Source: an uncultured Woeseiaceae bacterium
Lineage (GTDB): Bacteria > Acidobacteriota > Vicinamibacteria > Vicinamibacterales > UBA823
Assembly (NCBI GenBank): GCA_964569695.1
Contig: CAZMUA010000005.1
Location: 18,904-82,903 of the forward strand
DNA: 64,000 nucleotides
Direction of reading: 5' to 3'
Below are positions 8,780 through 50,546 of the stretch, in pieces; position 1 is the stretch's first letter; every line of letters starts with the position of its first letter. The notes beneath the pieces are model-generated. The model was given only the letters and a program-made list of their open reading frames with translations. It made no database searches and had not been told where the DNA came from. The position numbers were made by a program, and so were the translations under genes.

Positions 8780-9195
8780 CCGTCGTAGGCGGCCAGACGA
8801 TCGCCGCGTTCGTCCAAGTAATTGGACGACGGGGAGGAAAGTCCGAACTCCGTAGGGTAGTGCGCCGGGTAATGCCCGGTCAGGGTGACCTGAAGGAAAG
8901 TGGCACAGAAAACATACCGCCACGATTGCGAACCCTCTGGGTACACGTTGTGGTAAGGGTGAAAAGGTGCGGTAAGAGCGCACCGCGTTTACCGTAAGGT
9001 AAATGGCAGGCTAAACCCCGCACGGAGCAAGACCAAATAGGGAAGCGTTTTAGGACGACCCGTCCAAAGCTTCCGGGTAGGTTGCTTGATCCTGTCAGCA
9101 ATGACTGGACTAGAGGAATGATCGTCACCAAAGCTTAGTTGCGTAAGCGATTAGGACTAGGTACAGAATTCGGCTTATGGCAAACCTACGACGGA
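8780..9195 (+). ncRNA. rnpB: RNase P RNA, bacterial type A
   Basis: It carries GGAGGAAAGTCCG (8833-8845), GTGGCACAGAAAACATACCGCC, GGTAAGGGTGAAAAGGTGCGGTAAGAGCGCACC, AGCAAGACCAAATAGGGAAG and ACAGAATTCGGCTTAT. The P1 helix pairs CCGTCGTAGG (8780-8789) with CCTACGACGG (9185-9194). Confidence 0.93.
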
Positions 9196-41555: not shown

Positions 41556-41588
41556 CCAGTCAGCCGAAGAGAAATATTGGTTTTCTGT

Positions 41589-44048
41589 ATGACTAAAAAG
41601 AGTTCCAAAAAAACTACGCGGCGTAAATTTCTCCAGCATGTTACGGGAGGCGTCATTGTACCAGCCGTAGTTAAAGGAACTTCGCCCCTTGATGGGTCGA
41701 GTTCTTTTATTGACCGATCAAGCCAGAATGACCTGACAGCGATTATCAATCTGGAAACAGGTGTGACCCGTCCATGGCTTGGTTCGGCGTTGTGGGCAAA
41801 TCGTTTGCAGGACTGGAGGCTGAACGATGGTCGTATCGAATGTCTCGCTGGTGGCCAAGAAGATTTGGGTCGAACGGTTGGGATATTAACCCGTGAGATC
41901 GTGAGCGGTGAGGGGGCAGTGCATCTCCGCGTGCTGACCGGCACGCTTGAAATGTCAGGAAAAGGCGGGTTTAGTGGTTTCCTTATTGGTGTGGGTGCTG
42001 GAAATCTCGACTACCGGTCCTCTGCTTTGGCTCAAAAGGCATCTGGAATGGACGGGGGTTTCTGGTGTGGGTACGAAAGTGATGGTCAAATTCGATTTCG
42101 TGAACATACAGACGAGCGGGCGCCGCTTGCTTATAGGGAACTGTCCTCTGAGCAGACGAGTGAAGGGTTTAGTCCAAAGCGTAATTTGAATGAGGTAGTC
42201 GAATTACGCTTAGACATTAAGTTGCAATCAGACGGACGCTTCACGGTCACTCTGAATGCACTCGACGCTAAAACAGGGGAGCACTTGGCTGGAGGCATTC
42301 GTCGTGATGTTGCGGATCGGGATGTGACTGGGGCGGTAGCACTTGTATCCTCCGCGACACCGCAGGGTGTCGGTTGTGCTCGTCATTGGTTTCAAGATCT
42401 TGAGAGTGGCGGTTCCAAGATTGCCAATCATGCATCCAGGTCTTTGGGACCTATTCTGGGGACTCTGTATTCCCTTAACCAAAACGTCCTGAAGGTGTCT
42501 GTCCAGTTGATGCCTCTTAGTGATGATGCACCACGGACAGTTTTGTTTCAGTATCGAACCCCAGGAGGGCTGTGGCAAGAAGGAACTAATGCAGAGTGGG
42601 GGATGGGATACTCAGCAGTGTTTCGGATGGAAGAATGGGATTCTTCTCAATCTTGGGAATATCGCGTGCGATACAAAAACTTATCGGGAGTCCAACACGA
42701 TTATCTCGGAGTCGTTCAACAAGACCCGAAAGACTATGACGAGTTCGCTATAGCCCATCTAAGTTGTGTTATGCCAGTCGCCCGTTCGTTTGAGGGCGGG
42801 ATAGGTGAGCCTGAGCTACCGATAGCGGAATTATTAGGGCGTTACACTAATAAGAACATCCATTTTCCGCACGCTGATTTAGTTAGGCACCTCTCGGTTC
42901 ATGATCCGAAACTGCTTGTGTTTGCGGGCGACCAGTTGTACGAGCATCGTCCGACTCGGCAGGATGAGAGTAAGACACAAGGGTTGGATTATCTATATAA
43001 ATGGTTTCTTTGGTACTGGTCATTTGGCGACTTAACCCGTCGAGTGCCGACAATTATTCAGACTGACGATCATGACGTCTATCAGGGAAACCTTTGGGGC
43101 AATGGTGGTCGCGCAGCACCACCCAAGATTGTGGATCGTGACGGTGTAGCAACTAGAGTGCCTGATCAAAATCGTGGAGGGTATAGGTTCAGCCCTGGGT
43201 TCGTTAACCTTGTCCAGCAGACCCAGTGTGGACACAATCCCGACCCCTACGACCCGACACCGATTGAACAAGGCATTGGCGTGTACTATGCAACATTCAT
43301 CTATGGCGGTATCAGTTTTGCTCTTCTAGAGGACCGTAAGTTTAAGACTGCACCAATCCAAGGTGCAGACCTTGATGTCCATGAAGCAGAATTGTTGGGC
43401 GGTCGGCAGGAAGCATTTTTGCAGAGTTGGGCTCATGACAAAGGCGATGTTGATGGTCGTATCTGCTTAACTCAAACGGTATTTGCATGTGTGCAGACCA
43501 GTCCGGAAGGTCGCCCGTTAGTGGATTGGGATTCGAATGGTCACCCAAAACTTCAGCGTGATCGCGCAATCGCGTTATTGCGGGACGCGGGAGCGCTTGT
43601 ACTGGCAGGTGACCAGCATTTAGCTTCCATTGTGCGGCATGGTATTGATTCTCATACTGACGGTGTCGTGCAGTACACGGGTCCTGCGACACTATCGTTT
43701 TGGCAGCGCTGGTTTGAGCCACGCACGGGCTTACCTAATGCTCAGGGTAGGCATACAGGTGATTTTGTGGATGCTTTTGGGAATAGACTTCGAGTGCATG
43801 CTGTAGCAAATCCAAAGATTTCCTTCGACTATTATCGTCGGTTTAAGCCGGGTCGTAGCCAGGCGTTGGGAGACACTCAGCTAAAGAGTGAAGGCTACGG
43901 AATTATACGAGTCCAAAAATTACAAAAGAAATATGTCATTGAATGTTGGCCACGAGCTGTTGACCCCCGTGACCGGGATGCGGCTCAATTTGCAGGCTGG
44001 CCGTTTCATTTGCGGTTTGACGAGTGTGATGGACGGGCGCTTGATTAG
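41589..44048 (+). CDS. Tat-exported PhoD-like metallophosphatase with a large N-terminal domain of unknown function
   Basis: It has the Tat motif 'TRRKFLQH'. The C-terminal half carries 'FAGDQLYEH', 'QTDDHDVYQGNLWG' and 'LAGDQHLASIVRHG' (calcineurin/PhoD-like). The longest ORF starts at 41577. Confidence 0.75.
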   Translation: MTKKSSKKTTRRKFLQHVTGGVIVPAVVKGTSPLDGSSSFIDRSSQNDLTAIINLETGVTRPWLGSALWANRLQDWRLNDGRIECLAGGQEDLGRTVGILTREIVSGEGAVHLRVLTGTLEMSGKGGFSGFLIGVGAGNLDYRSSALAQKASGMDGGFWCGYESDGQIRFREHTDERAPLAYRELSSEQTSEGFSPKRNLNEVVELRLDIKLQSDGRFTVTLNALDAKTGEHLAGGIRRDVADRDVTGAVALVSSATPQGVGCARHWFQDLESGGSKIANHASRSLGPILGTLYSLNQNVLKVSVQLMPLSDDAPRTVLFQYRTPGGLWQEGTNAEWGMGYSAVFRMEEWDSSQSWEYRVRYKNLSGVQHDYLGVVQQDPKDYDEFAIAHLSCVMPVARSFEGGIGEPELPIAELLGRYTNKNIHFPHADLVRHLSVHDPKLLVFAGDQLYEHRPTRQDESKTQGLDYLYKWFLWYWSFGDLTRRVPTIIQTDDHDVYQGNLWGNGGRAAPPKIVDRDGVATRVPDQNRGGYRFSPGFVNLVQQTQCGHNPDPYDPTPIEQGIGVYYATFIYGGISFALLEDRKFKTAPIQGADLDVHEAELLGGRQEAFLQSWAHDKGDVDGRICLTQTVFACVQTSPEGRPLVDWDSNGHPKLQRDRAIALLRDAGALVLAGDQHLASIVRHGIDSHTDGVVQYTGPATLSFWQRWFEPRTGLPNAQGRHTGDFVDAFGNRLRVHAVANPKISFDYYRRFKPGRSQALGDTQLKSEGYGIIRVQKLQKKYVIECWPRAVDPRDRDAAQFAGWPFHLRFDECDGRALD

Positions 44049-44089: not shown

Positions 44090-44119
44090 TTGACTTAACA
44101 TTGCTGGGCGGAGTATAAA
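44090..44119 (+). promoter_or_regulatory. candidate sigma70-type promoter of the thr-family operon leader
   Basis: TTGACT (44090-44095), an 18-nt spacer, then TATAAA (44114-44119), about 65 nt upstream of the leader ORF. Confidence 0.45.
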
Positions 44120-44183
44120 GATCTATTGGTTCTATTCGAAATAGCAGTGATTATGCTATTCACAACTTAGGAAGTTATCGCGG

Positions 44184-44315
44184 ATGATAAACGTGAGACT
44201 GTTCAGTTGGTTCAAGACCGCTGTAGATGTCAACTTCACGATATCTGTAAGCACGGCGACGATCGTCACTATTTTCGGCACGACCACGATGCCGTGGGCG
44301 TGCAAGATGATGTAG
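44184..44315 (+). CDS. Thr/Ile-rich leader peptide (thrL-like), 43 aa
   Basis: Translated by hand because it is under 60 aa and absent from the ORF track: MINVRLFSWFKTAVDVNFTISVSTATIVTIFGTTTMPWACKMM. It has an SD-like AGGAAG at 44169-44174. Its stop codon lies inside the antiterminator arm. Confidence 0.6.
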   Translation: MINVRLFSWFKTAVDVNFTISVSTATIVTIFGTTTMPWACKMM

Positions 44316-44345
44316 CCTGAACCAAGTAAGAGCAAGTAATCAAAG

Positions 44346-44377
44346 GCCATCATCCGAGCGGATGATGGCTTTTTTTT
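44346..44377 (+). terminator. Rho-independent terminator (attenuator) upstream of hom
   Basis: A perfect 10-bp stem GCCATCATCC (44346-44355) / GGATGATGGC (44360-44369) with loop GAGC, followed by eight T (44370-44377). Confidence 0.85.
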
Positions 44378-44406
44378 ATTCAGGGAAGAGGCGCGAAGAA
44401 TCTTTC

Positions 44407-45705
44407 ATGTCTAGTGATAAAGGCCAACCGAAAGTTCGAAGAGTAGGGATAGCTGGGTTTGGCACCGTGGGCCAGTCGGTAGCACGGTTGCTGTGTTCAG
44501 AGAGATATCCGGATCTGCTGTTAACGCACATCTACAATAGAAATATAGAGGCGAAGAAAGTCGATTGGGTGCCAAGACACGTCGTATGGACGGATCGGAT
44601 TGAAGATGTGCTAGATACTGATGTGGATATATTTGTTGAATTGATCGGTGGACTATCACCTGCAAAAGAGTGGATTGAAACCTCCATTAAGGGTGGACAG
44701 TCAGTCGTAACGGCGAACAAGCAAGTAATTGCTAAACACGGTGCTGAGCTTTGCACATTGGTTCGTCAAAGTGGCACGGCGCTAGGTTTCGAAGCGGCCG
44801 TTGGTGGCGGCATTCCAATGGTGCGAGGTATTCAGCAGGGGTTAGGGTCGGATCATTTAGTCGAACTTCTCGGAGTTTTAAACGGTACCTGCAACTTCAT
44901 CTTTGACCGTATGGAGTGCGAAGCGGTCACCATGGAGGAGGCAGTACAGGAGGCGCAGGCGCTCGGTTACGCGGAGGCGGATCCTTCAGATGACCTAGAC
45001 GGATTGGATGCACAGGCGAAGATCTCCATCTTGTCAGCGGTAGGACTTCGTCGTCGATTGACGCCGAGCGATATTCCAACTCGTACTATTAAGAGTGTTG
45101 GCCAAATGGAGTTTCGGCAGGCCGACAAATCGAACTATGTGATTCGACAGGTCTCACGTGTTGCTGTGGATAATTCTCAAGATGATCAAGTTCAAGCCCT
45201 AGTAACTCCTGCGTTAGTTCCAAAATCTTCACGCCTTGGCCAGGTGCATGGTGCTGAAAACATAATCGTAACGCGCGGTAAATGGGGAGGAGAATCAGCG
45301 TTTGTTGGGCTTGGGGCCGGCGGCGAACCTACGGCTATTGCTGTTGTTGGTGACCTCTTGAGTATTGCGGAAGATACCGGGATTAGCGCAGCGATGCGCT
45401 TTCCGGCATCAGAATCGACGTCTCGAATATCCAAAGAATATATTTCACGACATTATCTGCGAATGCCTGCTGTTCTTCCGGATGGGATGAATTCAGTATC
45501 TGATCGACTTAAGAGGAATGGTGTTGAAGTAGAAAAGACTTGGCAAGAATCAGAGCACTCTGGCCAATTGTTTACGCTAATGTTCACCGGCTTGGCATCG
45601 TTCTCGGTCATTCAAGAAATGTGTGGTGAAGTTGAGGGGAAACTCAAGGATGGGGAGCAATGTGTGTGGTTGCCAATCTTGGATGAAAACACGAAAGAGC
45701 ACTGA
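44407..45705 (+). CDS. hom: homoserine dehydrogenase
   Basis: It has 'VGIAGFGTVGQSV' (Rossmann fold), 'VVTANKQ', 'FEAAVGGGIP' and a C-terminal ACT-like domain. The longest-ORF start (44362) lies inside the terminator hairpin, so the Met at 44407 is preferred. Confidence 0.9.
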   Translation: MSSDKGQPKVRRVGIAGFGTVGQSVARLLCSERYPDLLLTHIYNRNIEAKKVDWVPRHVVWTDRIEDVLDTDVDIFVELIGGLSPAKEWIETSIKGGQSVVTANKQVIAKHGAELCTLVRQSGTALGFEAAVGGGIPMVRGIQQGLGSDHLVELLGVLNGTCNFIFDRMECEAVTMEEAVQEAQALGYAEADPSDDLDGLDAQAKISILSAVGLRRRLTPSDIPTRTIKSVGQMEFRQADKSNYVIRQVSRVAVDNSQDDQVQALVTPALVPKSSRLGQVHGAENIIVTRGKWGGESAFVGLGAGGEPTAIAVVGDLLSIAEDTGISAAMRFPASESTSRISKEYISRHYLRMPAVLPDGMNSVSDRLKRNGVEVEKTWQESEHSGQLFTLMFTGLASFSVIQEMCGEVEGKLKDGEQCVWLPILDENTKEH

Positions 45706-45724
45706 ACTGTTGCAAGGATAACGG

Positions 45725-46954
45725 ATGACATATTTTACTGGGTTGCAGTGTTTTCTATGCGGGACGGCCTTTCCGGCTAAGGCTTTGTTCGTCTGCGATC
45801 AATGCCTCGGGCCACTTGAACCGACATATGACTTTGACGCCGTGCGGGCTGACATGTCGCGTGCTGCCGTTGCATCGCGGCCGCAAAATTTGTGGCGTTA
45901 TCGAGAACTTCTTCCGATTGTAGGAGAACCCAGGACGGGTCTTCAGTCCGGATTTACGCCCTTGGTCCGTGCTGACCGTCTAGCTCGTGAGGTAGGTCTT
46001 CAAGAGCTTTATCTTAAGGATGATTCCGTGAATCATCCAAGCCTGTCCTACAAGGATCGAGTGGTCTCGGTGGCCGCGACTCGAGCCGTCGAACTGGGTT
46101 TTCAGAAATTCGGCTGTGCGTCCACTGGTAATCTAGCCAATAGTGTTTCTGCACACGCTGCACGTCTGGGCTTGGAGTGCTATGTGTTCATTCCAAAGAC
46201 GCTTGAACCTGGAAAGATAATAGGCACCTCGATCACAAATGCACATGTTGTAGCCATAGATGGAACCTACGATGACGTTAATCGACTGTGTACACAAGTC
46301 GCGGACCGTTTTGAAATTGGATTCGCAAATATTAACTTACGCACCTATTATGCGGAAGGTGCTAAAACGCACGCGTTCGAAATCGCGGAACAACTCGGCT
46401 GGACTTTTCCTAAACATGTAGTTGTGCCGGTTGCAGGAGGCACCTTATTACCCAGAGTGGGAAAAGGGTTTCGGGAGTTACGAGACATCGGCTTCGTTAG
46501 CGATTCGATGCCAAAAATTCATGCGGCTCAAGCTGCTGGTTCCGCACCAGTTGTTCGAGCCCTCCATGAAGGGCTCGAATATCCCGAACCAGTCAAGCCA
46601 GAAACCATCGCGAAGTCAATTGCTATTGGAAATCCGGCTGATGGATTTCAAGTCCTTCAAGTGGTGCGTGAAACTGGTGGTTGGGGCGCGATGGTGAGTG
46701 ACAGTCAAATCCTTGCGGCAATGAAATTACTCGCCGAAACTGAGGGTATTTTTACGGAGCCTGCTGGAGGTACTACGTTGGCTGTGACGTTAGCGCTTGT
46801 CGAAGAAGGAAAAATTCCACGTGATGAATCAGTCGTGGTGTCCATTACAGGTAACGGCTATAAAACGACTGATGCGATTAGCGGTCAGTTGAAACCTGTT
46901 GTGCAACTTGGACGCTCTTTGAAAGAGTTTGAGACTTTTCTAGCTGATCGGTAG
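45725..46954 (+). CDS. thrC: threonine synthase (subfamily with an N-terminal zinc ribbon)
   Basis: 409 aa with 'CFLCG...CDQC' and the PLP-Lys context 'PSLSYKDR'. The fold-type II layout and operon context agree. Confidence 0.88.
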   Translation: MTYFTGLQCFLCGTAFPAKALFVCDQCLGPLEPTYDFDAVRADMSRAAVASRPQNLWRYRELLPIVGEPRTGLQSGFTPLVRADRLAREVGLQELYLKDDSVNHPSLSYKDRVVSVAATRAVELGFQKFGCASTGNLANSVSAHAARLGLECYVFIPKTLEPGKIIGTSITNAHVVAIDGTYDDVNRLCTQVADRFEIGFANINLRTYYAEGAKTHAFEIAEQLGWTFPKHVVVPVAGGTLLPRVGKGFRELRDIGFVSDSMPKIHAAQAAGSAPVVRALHEGLEYPEPVKPETIAKSIAIGNPADGFQVLQVVRETGGWGAMVSDSQILAAMKLLAETEGIFTEPAGGTTLAVTLALVEEGKIPRDESVVVSITGNGYKTTDAISGQLKPVVQLGRSLKEFETFLADR

Positions 46955-46986
46955 GTTGACGGATAATCGTTCTTAGATGATCAGGT

Positions 46987-48234
46987 GTGAGGCCGGCAAT
47001 GGATAAGATGCACGAATGGAGTGAGGTCGTCGAAGCCGAAGGGCATTTAATTGATTCTGAGGTATTAACTACCATTTTTGACAAGGTTATCGAGCAGGGC
47101 GCCAAGTTCGAGGTTGAACATTTCGATATTGGTCGGACAAACGAGGATTCGTCCAGACTCTGTCTGAAAGTCACAGCTTCCAGTGAAGCTGCCTTGCAAC
47201 GGTTGTTAGAAGACCTAGTGCCCCTAGGCTGTCATCAAGGTCCAGAGCGTGATGCGAAATTAGAGTTAGCAGCATCGGAGGGTTGTGCACCAGAGGCGTT
47301 CTATTCAACAACGAATCATCGCACGCGAATAAGGCATGGCGGTTCTTGGATTGATGTTAAACATCAGCGCATGGATGCTGTAATTGTAGTGAAGAATGGA
47401 AAGGCAACTTGTCGGAAGCTTCGAGACCTCAAGGTTGGAGAGTTAGTGGTTTGTGGAGCTGATGGGATTCGGGTAAGCCCCGAGTACCGTGAACGCGATC
47501 GGTTAGGCTTTGCGTTCATGACAAATGATATTTCGTCTGAACGGCGTGTTGAAGTTGGCGTGGTCCGTGTTGCTGCCATGATGGATGAAGTCCGGAAAGC
47601 AGGTGGCCGCATTGTTTTCGTAGCCGGTCCATTAATCGTGCACACTGGAGGCGCTCCTTACTTCGCTGAACTTATTAGGCTAGGTTATGTTGATGCATTG
47701 TTGGCCGGTAATGCTCTAGCTGTACACGACATCGAGTTAGCCCTATTTGGAACCTCTTTGGGGGTCGACCTGGAGTCGGGGATGACTGTTGAGCACGGCC
47801 ATCAAAACCATATGCGGGCGATCAATACCATCAATACGGCAGGAGGAATTAGTCAGGCAGTTCAGGCCGATGTCTTAAATGCTGGCGTGATGTACGAGTG
47901 TGTCCAAAAAGGCGTGGAGTACGTACTCGCTGGAAGCATTCGTGACGATGGTCCTCTACGAGACACCGTTATGGATTTGGTTGAGGCGCAAGAGCAGTAT
48001 GCGAAGGTGTTGAAAGACGCGTCGATGGTCGTAATGCTTTCATCGATGCTTCACAGTATCGGTGTCGGTAATATGTTGCCATCATGGGTGAGAGTTGTTT
48101 GTGTGGACATAAATCCTGCTGTGGTGACTAAGCTGGCTGATCGAGGATCGTCGCAAACTGCTGGCATTGTTACTGATGTTGGTCTGTTTCTTGAGCGCTT
48201 GATTCGTCAGGTGCGACCTCGTTCTAAGAATTAG
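46987..48234 (+). CDS. uncharacterised LOR/SDH conserved-region (TIGR00300-like) protein
   Basis: 415 aa. The N-terminal 'VEAEGHLIDSEVLTTIFDKVIEQG' and the overall layout resemble the PF04455/TIGR00300 family as I remember it. No GHMP-kinase, HAD or PGM-like motifs are present. The start could be ATG 46999. Confidence 0.6.
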   Translation: MRPAMDKMHEWSEVVEAEGHLIDSEVLTTIFDKVIEQGAKFEVEHFDIGRTNEDSSRLCLKVTASSEAALQRLLEDLVPLGCHQGPERDAKLELAASEGCAPEAFYSTTNHRTRIRHGGSWIDVKHQRMDAVIVVKNGKATCRKLRDLKVGELVVCGADGIRVSPEYRERDRLGFAFMTNDISSERRVEVGVVRVAAMMDEVRKAGGRIVFVAGPLIVHTGGAPYFAELIRLGYVDALLAGNALAVHDIELALFGTSLGVDLESGMTVEHGHQNHMRAINTINTAGGISQAVQADVLNAGVMYECVQKGVEYVLAGSIRDDGPLRDTVMDLVEAQEQYAKVLKDASMVVMLSSMLHSIGVGNMLPSWVRVVCVDINPAVVTKLADRGSSQTAGIVTDVGLFLERLIRQVRPRSKN

Positions 48235-48250
48235 ACGAGAGGTTCAAGCT

Positions 48251-49498
48251 TTGAGTATTACGCAAACAGCAGAAATCGTGGTTAGGAAATATGGCGGTAG
48301 TTCGATCGCTACTCCTGAAAAGGTGATAGCGATTGCCGATCGAATCGCTGCGACTCGAAGTGCTCTGCCGAAGTTGGTCGTTGTGGTGTCAGCGATGGGA
48401 AAGACCACTGACGACTTAGTTGCCTTGGCGCATCAGGTGACACGCCAACCAGAAGGCCGAGAAATGGATTTATTGCTTGCTTCAGGAGAACAGATTTCAG
48501 TTTCACTGCTTGGGCTTGCGTTACAAGACCGGGACGTACCAGCCGTATCTCTTACCGCTACCCAGTGCGGTATTCGGACTGATGAAATGTTTAATGTCGC
48601 GCGAATTCGATCGATCGATACACAACGAATTCTTGATGAACTCCGTGACGATCGAGTAGTAATTATTACGGGATTTCAAGGGGTGACCGATTCGCATGAG
48701 ATTACGACACTCGGTCGAGGAGGTAGCGACGTCACGGGTGCCGCTGTGGCTGCAGCACTCGATGCACAGGTATGCGAAATTTGTACGGATGTTGACGGAG
48801 TCCTTTCTGCTGATCCGTCAGTCGCCTCGAATGCAAGATTATGGTCTGAGCTTAGTTATGAGGAGGCTATTGAAATGGCTTCGAGTGGAGCCAAAGTGCT
48901 CCATCCTCGGGCTGCGGAAATTTGTATGAATTATGGAATTCCAATTCACGTCCGATCGAGTTTTCATAATCGCGAAGGGACTTGGATTCGTTCAAGAGAG
49001 GATGTTATGGAAACGGCTGAAGTCGTTGGCGTCAGCAGTGACAAGAACGTAGCGAAAATGACACTCCTAAATGTCGAGGATCGTCCTGGCATTGCTGCGA
49101 AGGTCTTTGAGGAATTGGCTGTAGAAGGTATCAGTGTTCGACTGATCATCCAAAGTGCAAGTTCTGAGGATCGAGCACGAATTACCTTTATTGTTGACGA
49201 AGAATATGTGGACGCGGCTACTGAGGTGTTTCGCCGCTGGAAAGAAGAAGAATTGGCAACGGACGTGTTGGTTGACAGAGATGTTGCCAAGATCTCGATA
49301 GTGGGTTCGCGACTTGCGTCCACGCCCAATTTAGCGGCAAGAATGTTTGTTGCCTTAGCTCGCGAGAATATCAACATCGATTGTATAAGTTCTTCTGAGA
49401 TGAAAGTCGCATGTGTGATTGCCTCGAAGCATCTCAATAAAGCTGTGCAAGTAGTGCACGATGAATTCTTTGCACTGGAATTGAAGGCCGATGGATAA
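48251..49498 (+). CDS. lysC: aspartate kinase (monofunctional, two ACT domains)
   Basis: 415 aa with 'VVRKYGGSS', 'VVVVSAMGKTTD' and 'LGRGGSD', plus C-terminal tandem ACT domains. TTG start. Confidence 0.92.
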   Translation: MSITQTAEIVVRKYGGSSIATPEKVIAIADRIAATRSALPKLVVVVSAMGKTTDDLVALAHQVTRQPEGREMDLLLASGEQISVSLLGLALQDRDVPAVSLTATQCGIRTDEMFNVARIRSIDTQRILDELRDDRVVIITGFQGVTDSHEITTLGRGGSDVTGAAVAAALDAQVCEICTDVDGVLSADPSVASNARLWSELSYEEAIEMASSGAKVLHPRAAEICMNYGIPIHVRSSFHNREGTWIRSREDVMETAEVVGVSSDKNVAKMTLLNVEDRPGIAAKVFEELAVEGISVRLIIQSASSEDRARITFIVDEEYVDAATEVFRRWKEEELATDVLVDRDVAKISIVGSRLASTPNLAARMFVALARENINIDCISSSEMKVACVIASKHLNKAVQVVHDEFFALELKADG

Positions 49499-50546
49499 CC
49501 GAAAACGGATTCAGGTAGGGATCCTTGGAGCTACTGGGATGGTAGGCCAGCAGCTTATTCAAGAACTGACAGATCATCCGTGGTTCGAATTGACCTGGCT
49601 GGGTGCAAGTGAGCGTTCGGCCGGACGGCAATATACGGATGTGATCGATTGGCGTCTACCAACTTCACTATCTTCCACTCTTGGGAATTTAATAGTTCAG
49701 AGTTCAGAGCCGACGAATGCGCCTCATCTTATGTTTTCGGGTGTGGACGCATCGGCTGCTGGTCAGATTGAGTCCGCGTTTGCGAACGCCGGTCATATGA
49801 TTGTAAGTAATGCCCGTAATCATCGCATGGAAGAGTGCGTGCCACTGTTGATACCAGAAGTGAACCCAGACCACTTAGGGCTTTTAGGCCAGCAGAAAAA
49901 AAGGAAAGGATGGGCCGGCGGTGTTGTTACGAATCCAAACTGCTCGACTATAGTTTTGGCGATGGCCTTGGCGCCATTGCGAGGATTCGGTATTCGTTCA
50001 GTGATTGTTACTACTCTTCAGGCCATATCTGGAGCAGGATATCCTGGACTGGCCTCGTACGACATTGTTGGCAATGTAATACCGATCGTGCCTGGTGAAG
50101 AAGCCAAAATGGAACATGAAACACAGAAAATCCTTGGCACATTTATTAAAGACCGTATTGAATTACATCCGATGACTGTTAGTGCCCACACGACTCGCGT
50201 GCCGGTGATCGATGGTCATACTGTAACGGTGTCAGTTAAATTTGAGAAAGCTCCGACATTGGATGAGCTGCGTGTGGCATTCGAGGGATTTACAGGTAGT
50301 CCGCAAGAGCAAGAATTGCCAAGCGCGCCAAAAAGTCCAATCGTGTATTTAAACGCTGAAGACCGACCCCAGCCTCGACTTGATGCTCAACGTGGAGAAG
50401 GTATGACGGTATCCATAGGTCGCCTAAGAGAATGCAATGTGCTTGATATTAGATTCGTAGCGCTTGGCCACAACACTGTGCGTGGTGCTGCGGGTGCCGC
50501 GGTACTCAATGCCGAATTATTGTACTCGCAAGGCTTGCTAAACTAG
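49491..50546 (+). CDS. asd: aspartate-semialdehyde dehydrogenase
   Basis: 351 aa with 'VGILGATGMVGQ' and the catalytic Cys in 'NPNCSTIVLAMAL'. It overlaps the lysC stop by 8 nt. Confidence 0.92.
   Translation: MDNRKRIQVGILGATGMVGQQLIQELTDHPWFELTWLGASERSAGRQYTDVIDWRLPTSLSSTLGNLIVQSSEPTNAPHLMFSGVDASAAGQIESAFANAGHMIVSNARNHRMEECVPLLIPEVNPDHLGLLGQQKKRKGWAGGVVTNPNCSTIVLAMALAPLRGFGIRSVIVTTLQAISGAGYPGLASYDIVGNVIPIVPGEEAKMEHETQKILGTFIKDRIELHPMTVSAHTTRVPVIDGHTVTVSVKFEKAPTLDELRVAFEGFTGSPQEQELPSAPKSPIVYLNAEDRPQPRLDAQRGEGMTVSIGRLRECNVLDIRFVALGHNTVRGAAGAAVLNAELLYSQGLLN

Follow-up and report, generated by a model that had tools for sequence, protein, structure and literature searches.

The closest described relatives of the element considered here are leader-peptide attenuators of amino-acid operons. 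In the enterobacterial thrL system (RF00506, Thr_leader), a threonine (Thr)-rich leader peptide precedes threonine-pathway genes, and the intrinsic terminator is pre-empted by an upstream complementary arm. In the four-segment model of Escherichia coli trpL, the regulatory codons lie far enough 5′ that a stalled ribosome frees segment 2, and segments 3 and 4 pair (3:4) when a ribosome that has reached the stop codon masks segment 2. Comparative genomics has also predicted leader-peptide attenuators in Actinobacteria and Firmicutes before ilv, leu, trp and his genes (PMC1262725; PMC2965389), and almost none of the attenuators predicted in Acidobacteria had a function in the 2010 survey (PMC2965389). 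No such attenuators in Acidobacteria were found described in a literature search; the broadest survey, Lopatovskaya et al. 2010 (PMID 20198868), lay outside that search and may list candidates. The DNA analyzed here (“the window” is the whole 64-kb stretch) carries, upstream of the operon hom-thrC-ocd-lysC-asd (ocd, ornithine cyclodeaminase), an element that its sequence and that of its relatives predict, with high probability, to be a ribosome-mediated leader-peptide transcription attenuator of that operon. The mechanism is classical, and the family to which the element belongs is new to the curated record. A preliminary description of the window had proposed thrL-type logic in a non-enterobacterial setting, and the comparative evidence set out below backs that reading. 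The parts of the element, all on the + strand, are as follows (nt, nucleotides; ORF, open reading frame; R1, a covariance model of the conserved cassette).

44090–44119, +: promoter, seen in the sequence; −35 hexamer TTGACT (44090–44095), 18-nt spacer, −10 hexamer TATAAA (44114–44119)
44169–44174, +: Shine-Dalgarno-like AGGAAG, seen in the sequence, 9 nt 5′ of the leader ATG; kept in the related locus L001
44184–44315, +: leader ORF MINVRLFSWFKTAVDVNFTISVSTATIVTIFGTTTMPWACKMM, 43 codons, ATG start, TAG stop at 44313–44315
44253–44288, +: candidate Thr codons, at 44253, 44259 and 44268 and as the run ACG ACC ACG at 44280–44288
44262, 44271 and 44289, +: candidate other regulatory codons, isoleucine (Ile) at the first two and methionine (Met) at the third
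44255–44267, +: segment 1, possible anti-antiterminator arm GGCGACGAUCGUC, paired with segment 2 in the minimum-energy fold
44278–44303, +: hairpin P inside the ORF, GCACG-A-CCACG / CGUGG-G-CGUGC, from folding
44305–44318, +: segment 2, antiterminator 5′ arm, A-GAUGAUG-UA-GCCU, including the leader stop TAG
44344–44355, +: segment 3, A-GGCCAUCAUCC, antiterminator 3′ arm and terminator 5′ arm
44360–44369, +: segment 4, GGAUGAUGGC, terminator 3′ arm, followed by a T8 tract at 44370–44377
44301–44384, +: entire cassette, match to R1 (64.2 bits, E = 5.7e-16)

The preliminary description had placed the promoter, the 43-codon ORF with its AGGAAG, the terminator with a 10-base-pair (bp) stem, 4-nt loop and T8, the alternative pairing that sequesters the terminator 5′ arm, and the stop codon inside the antiterminator arm; all of these were recovered at the positions given, and the anatomy is extended by two parts that it had missed, hairpin P and the possible anti-antiterminator arm. 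The intrinsic terminator lies between the leader ORF and hom. Its stem pairs GCCATCATCC (44346–44355) with GGATGATGGC (44360–44369) around the loop GAGC (−21.7 kcal/mol with T8), and a terminator scan lengthens the 10-bp stem to 14 pairs by adding A/U pairs. The competing antiterminator helix (2:3) joins GAUGAUG (44306–44312) and GCCU (44315–44318) to AGGC-CAUCAUC (44344–44354), with an energy of −12.2 kcal/mol, and is the minimum-energy fold of RNA running from 44296 or 44302 to 44357. The region 44120–44400 as a whole folds at z = −4.6 relative to dinucleotide shuffles, and both of the mutually exclusive helices, 2:3 and 3:4, are recovered in its sub-folds. In whole-leader folds with a masked ribosome, long-range pairs between segment 3 and the region of the start codon prevailed, and these folds were set aside in favor of folding only the RNA downstream of the ribosome. 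With the ribosome placed on any of residues T26–T35 of the window leader, the downstream RNA folds into the 2:3 helix. The long-range pairs involve a third copy of GGAUGAU, at 44182–44188, which overlaps the leader start codon and pairs with segment 3 (CCAUCAUCC) in minimum-energy folds.

Several features of the leader ORF stand out within the window. It is the Thr-richest of the 343 ATG-initiated ORFs of 25–70 amino acids in the six frames, and it alone among them has at least 7 Thr in 17 residues. The 5′ arm of hairpin P is formed by the codons of its Thr run (peptide TTT). The window also permits a structure in which segment 1 pairs with segment 2 (1:2), which together with hairpin P has an energy of −26.7 kcal/mol. 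A look-up of the leader peptide among 15 billion called proteins found no entry for it. On the − strand, a 65-residue ATG ORF (44156–44353) overlaps the whole leader; it has no support as a gene.

Conservation of the element follows hom. A profile built from four leaders (those of the window, L001, L003 and L004, found through the Hom protein) was searched against 84 related loci and matched 71 of them (E < 0.01), nearly all directly 5′ of hom and whatever the upstream gene. L001, L003 and L004 have the operon in the same gene order as the window, together with a clearly homologous leader, at a Hom identity of 90% in one and 51%–52% in the other two. The leader ORF remains open in relatives with 90% Hom identity, with an in-frame 3-nt indel, and the peptide motif IFGTTT(M/V)P is kept in the leaders of L003 and L004, even though Hom identity there is only 51%–52%. 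Short ORFs are present in the leaders of the relatives, and the promoter is visible in L001, L003 and L004. More widely, the promoter pattern TTGAC[TG]-N16-19-TAnnn[AT] occurs in 55 of 68 related loci, ~100–120 nt before the antiterminator arm; the consensus scan missed the window promoter solely because it accepts only T as the sixth base of the −10 hexamer. The window belongs to a Vicinamibacteria-related Acidobacteriota genome of marine origin. The nearest genome record is a Tara Oceans metagenome-assembled genome labeled “uncultured Acidobacteria” (Hom 91% identical), and the remaining relatives are Vicinamibacteria or other Acidobacteriota. One contig, L006 (NZSH01000054.1), with a 91% identical Hom and the same leader, carries the label Woeseiaceae (Gammaproteobacteria); it is probably mis-binned.

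The RNA segments are conserved at the level of sequence. The family's segment 2 block, GGRTGATGTAGC, is kept in nearly all relatives regardless of reading frame; as RNA, this arm reads GGRUGAUGUAGC and has the stop codon of the ORF inside it. The segment 3 core, CCATCATCC, is exact in almost all of 69 genome loci. Segment 3 follows segment 2 after 36–44 nt, and is itself followed by a loop of 4–9 nt, segment 4 (GGRTGATGG) and a T-run, so that the terminator arms family-wide are CCAUCAUCC and GGRUGAUGG. As a definition, the cassette comprises GGRUGAUGUAGC, in which a small ORF ends, then 22–30 nt, CCAUCAUCC, a loop, GGRUGAUGG and a T-run. The window copy fits this definition at 44305–44377, the sole deviation being A for the first G of block 1. 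R1 was built from 63 sequences, with the window copy in the training alignment; copies outside the training set score 48–84 bits. Neither a pattern search nor R1 with filters off found another copy in the window. The consensus structure that RNAalifold gives for the family is the terminator, with 12 pairs and compensatory changes in the outer 4. Standard pairs make up 95.1% of the cells of the 2:3 antiterminator, and 20%–53% when the partner is slid by 1–3 columns. A hairpin at the position of P is also present across 67 loci (mean −16.3 kcal/mol and mean z −1.41 for the 39 nt before the antiterminator arm), and its sequence varies from clade to clade.

How does the small ORF relate to these RNA segments? 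The stop codon of the ORF is the TGA of GGR-TGA in most clades, the TAG of ATG-ATG-TAG in the clade of the window, and a TGA 5 nt further on in L003 and L004. Hence, the stop codon lies within segment 2 or 5 nt past it in all three frame classes, and each clade keeps its frame open from the ATG to that stop. Since the nucleotides of segment 2 are constant while the frame of the ORF differs by clade, segment 2 is held at the RNA level, by pairing. Leader composition was taken from the last 22 residues of 61 distinct hom leader peptides. Thr makes up 19.4% of residues in the leader frame; the figure is 4.4% for Hom, and the two alternative frames have 3.4% and 1.6%. Met follows the same pattern (8.7% in the leader frame, 0.6% and 2.0% in the other two, and 1.1% in Hom). 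The preliminary description had read the leader as a combined Thr and Ile signal; Thr stands, and Ile as a co-signal was rejected family-wide, at 2.5% in leaders versus 5.4% in Hom, with Met enriched instead. In 82% of leaders, the residue at −11 from the stop is Thr, and the median distance from the Thr codons to segment 2, which lies downstream, is 36 nt. From this geometry, segment 2 would stay accessible when a ribosome stalls with a Thr codon in the A site, and would be covered when the ribosome has reached the stop codon. What is conserved across the family is composition and the position of the Thr codons, not peptide sequence; leader length ranges from ~16 to 45 amino acids, with 20–35 typical of clades other than the window's.

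The same cassette is found before other amino-acid operons. When metagenome contigs were scanned for exact patterns of segments 2, 3 and 4, at least 120 loci were obtained, and in only 26 of those listed is hom the downstream gene. The other downstream genes among the matches listed, as identified with Pfam, include 2-isopropylmalate-synthase-like (leuA-like), ilvD, class IV aminotransferase (ilvE, sometimes followed by hom), prephenate dehydratase (pheA) and bifunctional aspartokinase/homoserine dehydrogenase (thrA-like). The peptide encoded upstream changes with the gene. For example, the C-terminal part of leuA-like leaders (...RLRLLALSVAILGLVLAPLGFSG) is 35% leucine (Leu), 3% Thr and 0% Met, and the ilvD leader (...VGVVVITITGTVVPDAANGMM) contains VVVIITGTVV and is rich in valine (Val) and Ile. 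The ilvE leader, which like that of ilvE-hom is of Leu/Ile/Thr type, is METLLLLSLLVIPITGMICIRTSG, and the thrA-like leader, in L159, is MRTAITTTTATTTTITGMHTG, which resembles the E. coli thrL peptide. Thr exceeds Leu in 75 of 82 distinct hom/thrA leaders, and Leu exceeds Thr in all four leuA leaders. Met is raised only in hom leaders, at 8.0% and 4.4%, compared with 0%–2.5% in Leu-type leaders. One RNA platform, with an upstream peptide that tracks the downstream pathway across paralogous copies, argues for ribosome-mediated attenuation and is hard to explain otherwise. A Terriglobales-labeled relative of the leuA-type protein lies on a contig that has the cassette with a Leu-rich leader, as does a second Terriglobales-like contig with leuA-ilvB-ilvN. 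The family therefore covers at least two classes of Acidobacteriota, Vicinamibacteria and Terriglobales. Accordingly, the earlier suggestion of an independent and undescribed instance is half right: the element is undescribed, with no match in Rfam 15 or the literature search, and it is one member of a phylum-wide family rather than an isolated case.

Some individual copies of the cassette have features of their own. Where ilvE and hom form a pair (L094 and L108, metagenome contigs), the leader of the single cassette (...SILTLPTILLLTTTGMVMPAGRGG) combines Leu, Ile, Thr and Met, as though it had been fitted to a composite operon. Further groups of Leu-rich leaders occur at L089 and L134. In four metagenome contigs (L092, L097, L102 and L169), the leaders end in ...MWLDPPGSFG, with a conserved tryptophan, before a gene for a HAD-family hydrolase. 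The possibility of a generic terminator that occurs without segment 2 was discarded: of 65 apparent lone copies, the 25 listed are reverse readings of the palindromic hairpin, except for one with a diverged segment 2. In some lineages, a different stem takes the place of the cassette before hom, and a Thr/Met/Cys-containing leader is kept; the sequence of the cassette is therefore not indispensable. Three Acidobacteriota loci (L066, L075 and L081; ~2800–2960 and 2320–2525) have hom with a different attenuator, with the stem CCCGCCGGC/GCCGGCGGG, T9 and the leader MFAATTITCSMCMRIRMTRMLHAGG. The canonical cassette is found there on the opposite strand, ~500 nt upstream (R1 20–35 bits).

How does the window element compare with the described systems? 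With thrL it shares the Thr-rich leader peptide before threonine-pathway genes and the terminator pre-empted by an upstream arm, an identical logic. However, there is no detectable RNA homology. RF00506 scores 14.9 bits at the window element (E = 4) and 15.4 bits at L159, the most thrL-like relative, where the gathering score is 55. A search of Rfam 15 at gathering scores gave no match at the element, the only match in the window being an RNase P RNA elsewhere, and none in the loci of 28 relatives; in E-value mode, Thr_leader alone appeared at the element, at ~15 bits, which is not significant. The hom leaders here are enriched in Met and not in Ile, the first gene is a monofunctional hom, the operon includes lysC, asd and ornithine cyclodeaminase, and the stop codon lies within the antiterminator arm, all of which differ from thrL. 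With trpL the element shares the placement of the regulatory codons and the masking of segment 2 by a ribosome at the stop, and a 1:2 pairing is also predicted in the window. Unlike in trpL, 1:2 is not demonstrably conserved here, and the stretch from the regulatory codons to segment 2 holds a hairpin of its own, P. The attenuators of Actinobacteria and Firmicutes vary by operon, whereas here one cassette is common to at least five operon types and two classes of Acidobacteriota. In this respect the family is analogous, and only analogous, to the T-box: in both, one conserved terminator/antiterminator platform recurs before many amino-acid genes, with the amino-acid specificity set by a variable part upstream of it. 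In the T-box, a specifier codon and the conserved T-box bulge read uncharged tRNA directly, whereas specificity here lies in the translated codons of the small ORF.

Taken together, these parts suggest the following mechanism. Transcription would start just 3′ of TATAAA (44114–44119), and a ribosome would translate the 43-codon leader. When Thr-tRNA is ample, the ribosome would reach the TAG and cover segment 2 (44305–44318); segment 3 (44344–44355) would then pair with segment 4 (44360–44369), and RNA polymerase would terminate at the T8 tract. When Thr-tRNA is scarce, the ribosome would stall on the Thr codons at 44253–44288, mainly at ACG ACC ACG (44280–44288), 19–50 nt 5′ of segment 2. The stalled ribosome would melt hairpin P and leave segment 2 exposed, and segment 2 would win the kinetic competition by pairing with segment 3 before segment 4 is synthesized, such that no terminator forms and the operon is transcribed. 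Scarcity of Met-tRNA may act likewise, in which case the Met enrichment in hom leaders would be a second signal; it may instead be a by-product of local sequence constraints.

Not all of the evidence favors this mechanism. The Thr codons are scattered, mostly 2–4 per 6 residues, where those of E. coli thrL are denser. A conserved 1:2 anti-antiterminator was not found family-wide: segment 2 pairs at 4.6 of 8 nt with the 75 nt upstream, compared with 5.0 of 8 nt in dinucleotide-shuffled sequence. This pairing, being no better than in shuffles, was dropped as a family feature and retained as a prediction for the window. Many GC-rich relatives have only weak Shine-Dalgarno signals. Some copies of the cassette precede genes for an ABC ATPase, a HAD hydrolase or a LysR protein, with no obvious amino-acid logic, and pheA leaders are not clearly rich in phenylalanine. 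The statistics take loci as independent, ignoring phylogenetic relatedness. Finally, the core helices show minimal covariation, and in the shuffle control for the antiterminator 143 of 500 shuffles reach the observed pairing, which is not significant. Both of these results arise because the core hardly varies. The few changes that do occur in the core point the right way: L064 and L080 have a triple compensatory change (segment 3 C>U, segment 4 G>A and segment 2 G>A), and in L048 a UA pair of the 2:3 helix becomes CG (segment 3 A>G, matched by segment 2 U>C). The alignment of relatives bears out the ORF, the Thr codons and the stems of the preliminary description, with Ile not enriched across the family and covariation in the core sparse.

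The near-invariance of the core is itself in need of explanation. The inner 8–9 bp of the terminator and the antiterminator arm are nearly the same across species with a Hom identity of 41%–54%, and also over paralogous attenuators and two classes, while the outer stem pairs covary freely. The three-way pairing and the required stop codon explain part of this invariance, though probably not all of it. GGRUGAUGUAGC contains stop codons in two frames, with a UGAUG stop-start overlap followed by AUG-UAG. It is conceivable, though we are doubtful, that the invariance reflects an additional sequence-specific step (a trans-acting factor, a programmed RNA polymerase pause or a ribosome-holding device) that would make this a distinct modular class of attenuator, with the hom version integrating Thr and Met through one leader peptide.

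Might the element work without attenuation by a translating ribosome? A trans-acting factor (a protein, a small RNA or a metabolite) that reads the invariant CCAUCAUCC/GGRUGAUG could drive the choice between 2:3 and 3:4, making the small ORFs incidental or secondary. Such a factor would fit a core that is more invariant than pairing demands, across classes and paralogous copies, beside outer pairs that covary. However, a single shared factor cannot explain leader composition that tracks the gene (Thr for hom/thrA, Leu for leuA and Val/Ile for ilvD), and the enrichment is specific to the frame whose stop is kept in or at segment 2, whichever of the three frames that is. No riboswitch, T-box or other Rfam family matches at the element. 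We consider it very unlikely that a factor of this kind replaces the ribosome; it could still act besides it. The product of the leader might instead be functional itself, either as a hydrophobic micro-protein or as a terminated RNA of ~250 nt acting in trans, with attenuation secondary. The window peptide is hydrophobic and, at 43 residues, longer than is typical elsewhere, and two reports describe a trans-acting attenuator RNA and peptide of the trp attenuator in Sinorhizobium meliloti (PMC6614838, PMC7298713). Nevertheless, a peptide that is conserved only in composition and Thr-codon position, and that varies almost threefold in length, makes this account very unlikely, and a function of the leader product would supplement attenuation in cis, not replace it.

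The most mundane account is that the hairpin is the ordinary terminator of the PhoD-like gene upstream (41577–44048), or belongs to an independent small RNA, and that the Thr-rich ORF and the alternative pairing are coincidental. The terminator does lie ~300 nt past the stop codon of the upstream gene, on the same strand. Yet the comparative data contradict a role as terminator of the upstream gene, since the element travels with hom, and the upstream genes differ in L003, L004 and the Vicinamibacterales loci. Furthermore, the element has its own conserved promoter, every such terminator core in the 1.28 Mb of sequence examined is accompanied by segment 2, and coincidence would have to place the most Thr-rich small ORF of the window at just this site. 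This account is extremely improbable. Ribosome-mediated attenuation thus remains the reading that we prefer by far.

What would be the implications of such a family? Acidobacteriota are among the most abundant bacteria of soils and the sea, and we know of almost nothing on their gene regulation. The cassette serves as a sequence-defined regulon marker: one short motif locates attenuators before hom/thrA, leuA, ilvD, ilvE and pheA, in at least Vicinamibacteria and Terriglobales, and the composition of the leader predicts the amino acid that is sensed. There are also gains for annotation, namely the addition of a family absent from Rfam and corrected start calls for hom, which is over-extended into the terminator. 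In addition, the family offers a natural experiment on the evolution of attenuators, in which a single expression platform has had its sensing peptides swapped. Of all its properties, the modular reuse of a near-invariant cassette is the least understood and the one of most interest. The classical attenuation paradigm would be extended should Met prove to be a second signal or should the invariance of the core come from an additional factor.

The genes around the element, annotated within the operon (44407–50546) with Pfam and NCBIfam, are as follows.

41577–44048, +: PhoD-like gene, 5′ of the leader; a sulfatase gene is also found upstream
44407–45705, +: hom, monofunctional
45725–46954, +: thrC
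46987–48234, +: ornithine cyclodeaminase, nickel-pincer-nucleotide-dependent (TIGR00300, 523 bits versus a cutoff of 410.8)
48251–49498, +: lysC
49491–50546, +: asd

The tight spacing of these genes, together with the finding of no internal terminators above chance in hom-thrC-ocd-lysC-asd, suggests that lysC and asd are co-transcribed and co-regulated with hom. Gene callers begin hom at an ATG at 44365, within the 3′ arm of the terminator, giving 446-residue products (P0001 and P0002). One extra stem base in L005 puts that ATG out of frame; therefore, the true start of hom is at 44407 (MSSDKGQPKV...). Pfam finds no ACT domain in Hom of the window's clade, L003 and L004 (P0001–P0004), and finds one in all other listed relatives; judging from the protein sequence, allosteric feedback by Thr on Hom may be altered in the lineage of the window. 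The operon has no thrB. Ornithine cyclodeaminase, a proline-forming enzyme, sits within this threonine/aspartate-pathway operon, a position shared with L001, L003 and L004. Elsewhere in the window, the RNase P RNA is of class A and lies at 8785–9193 on the + strand (305 bits).

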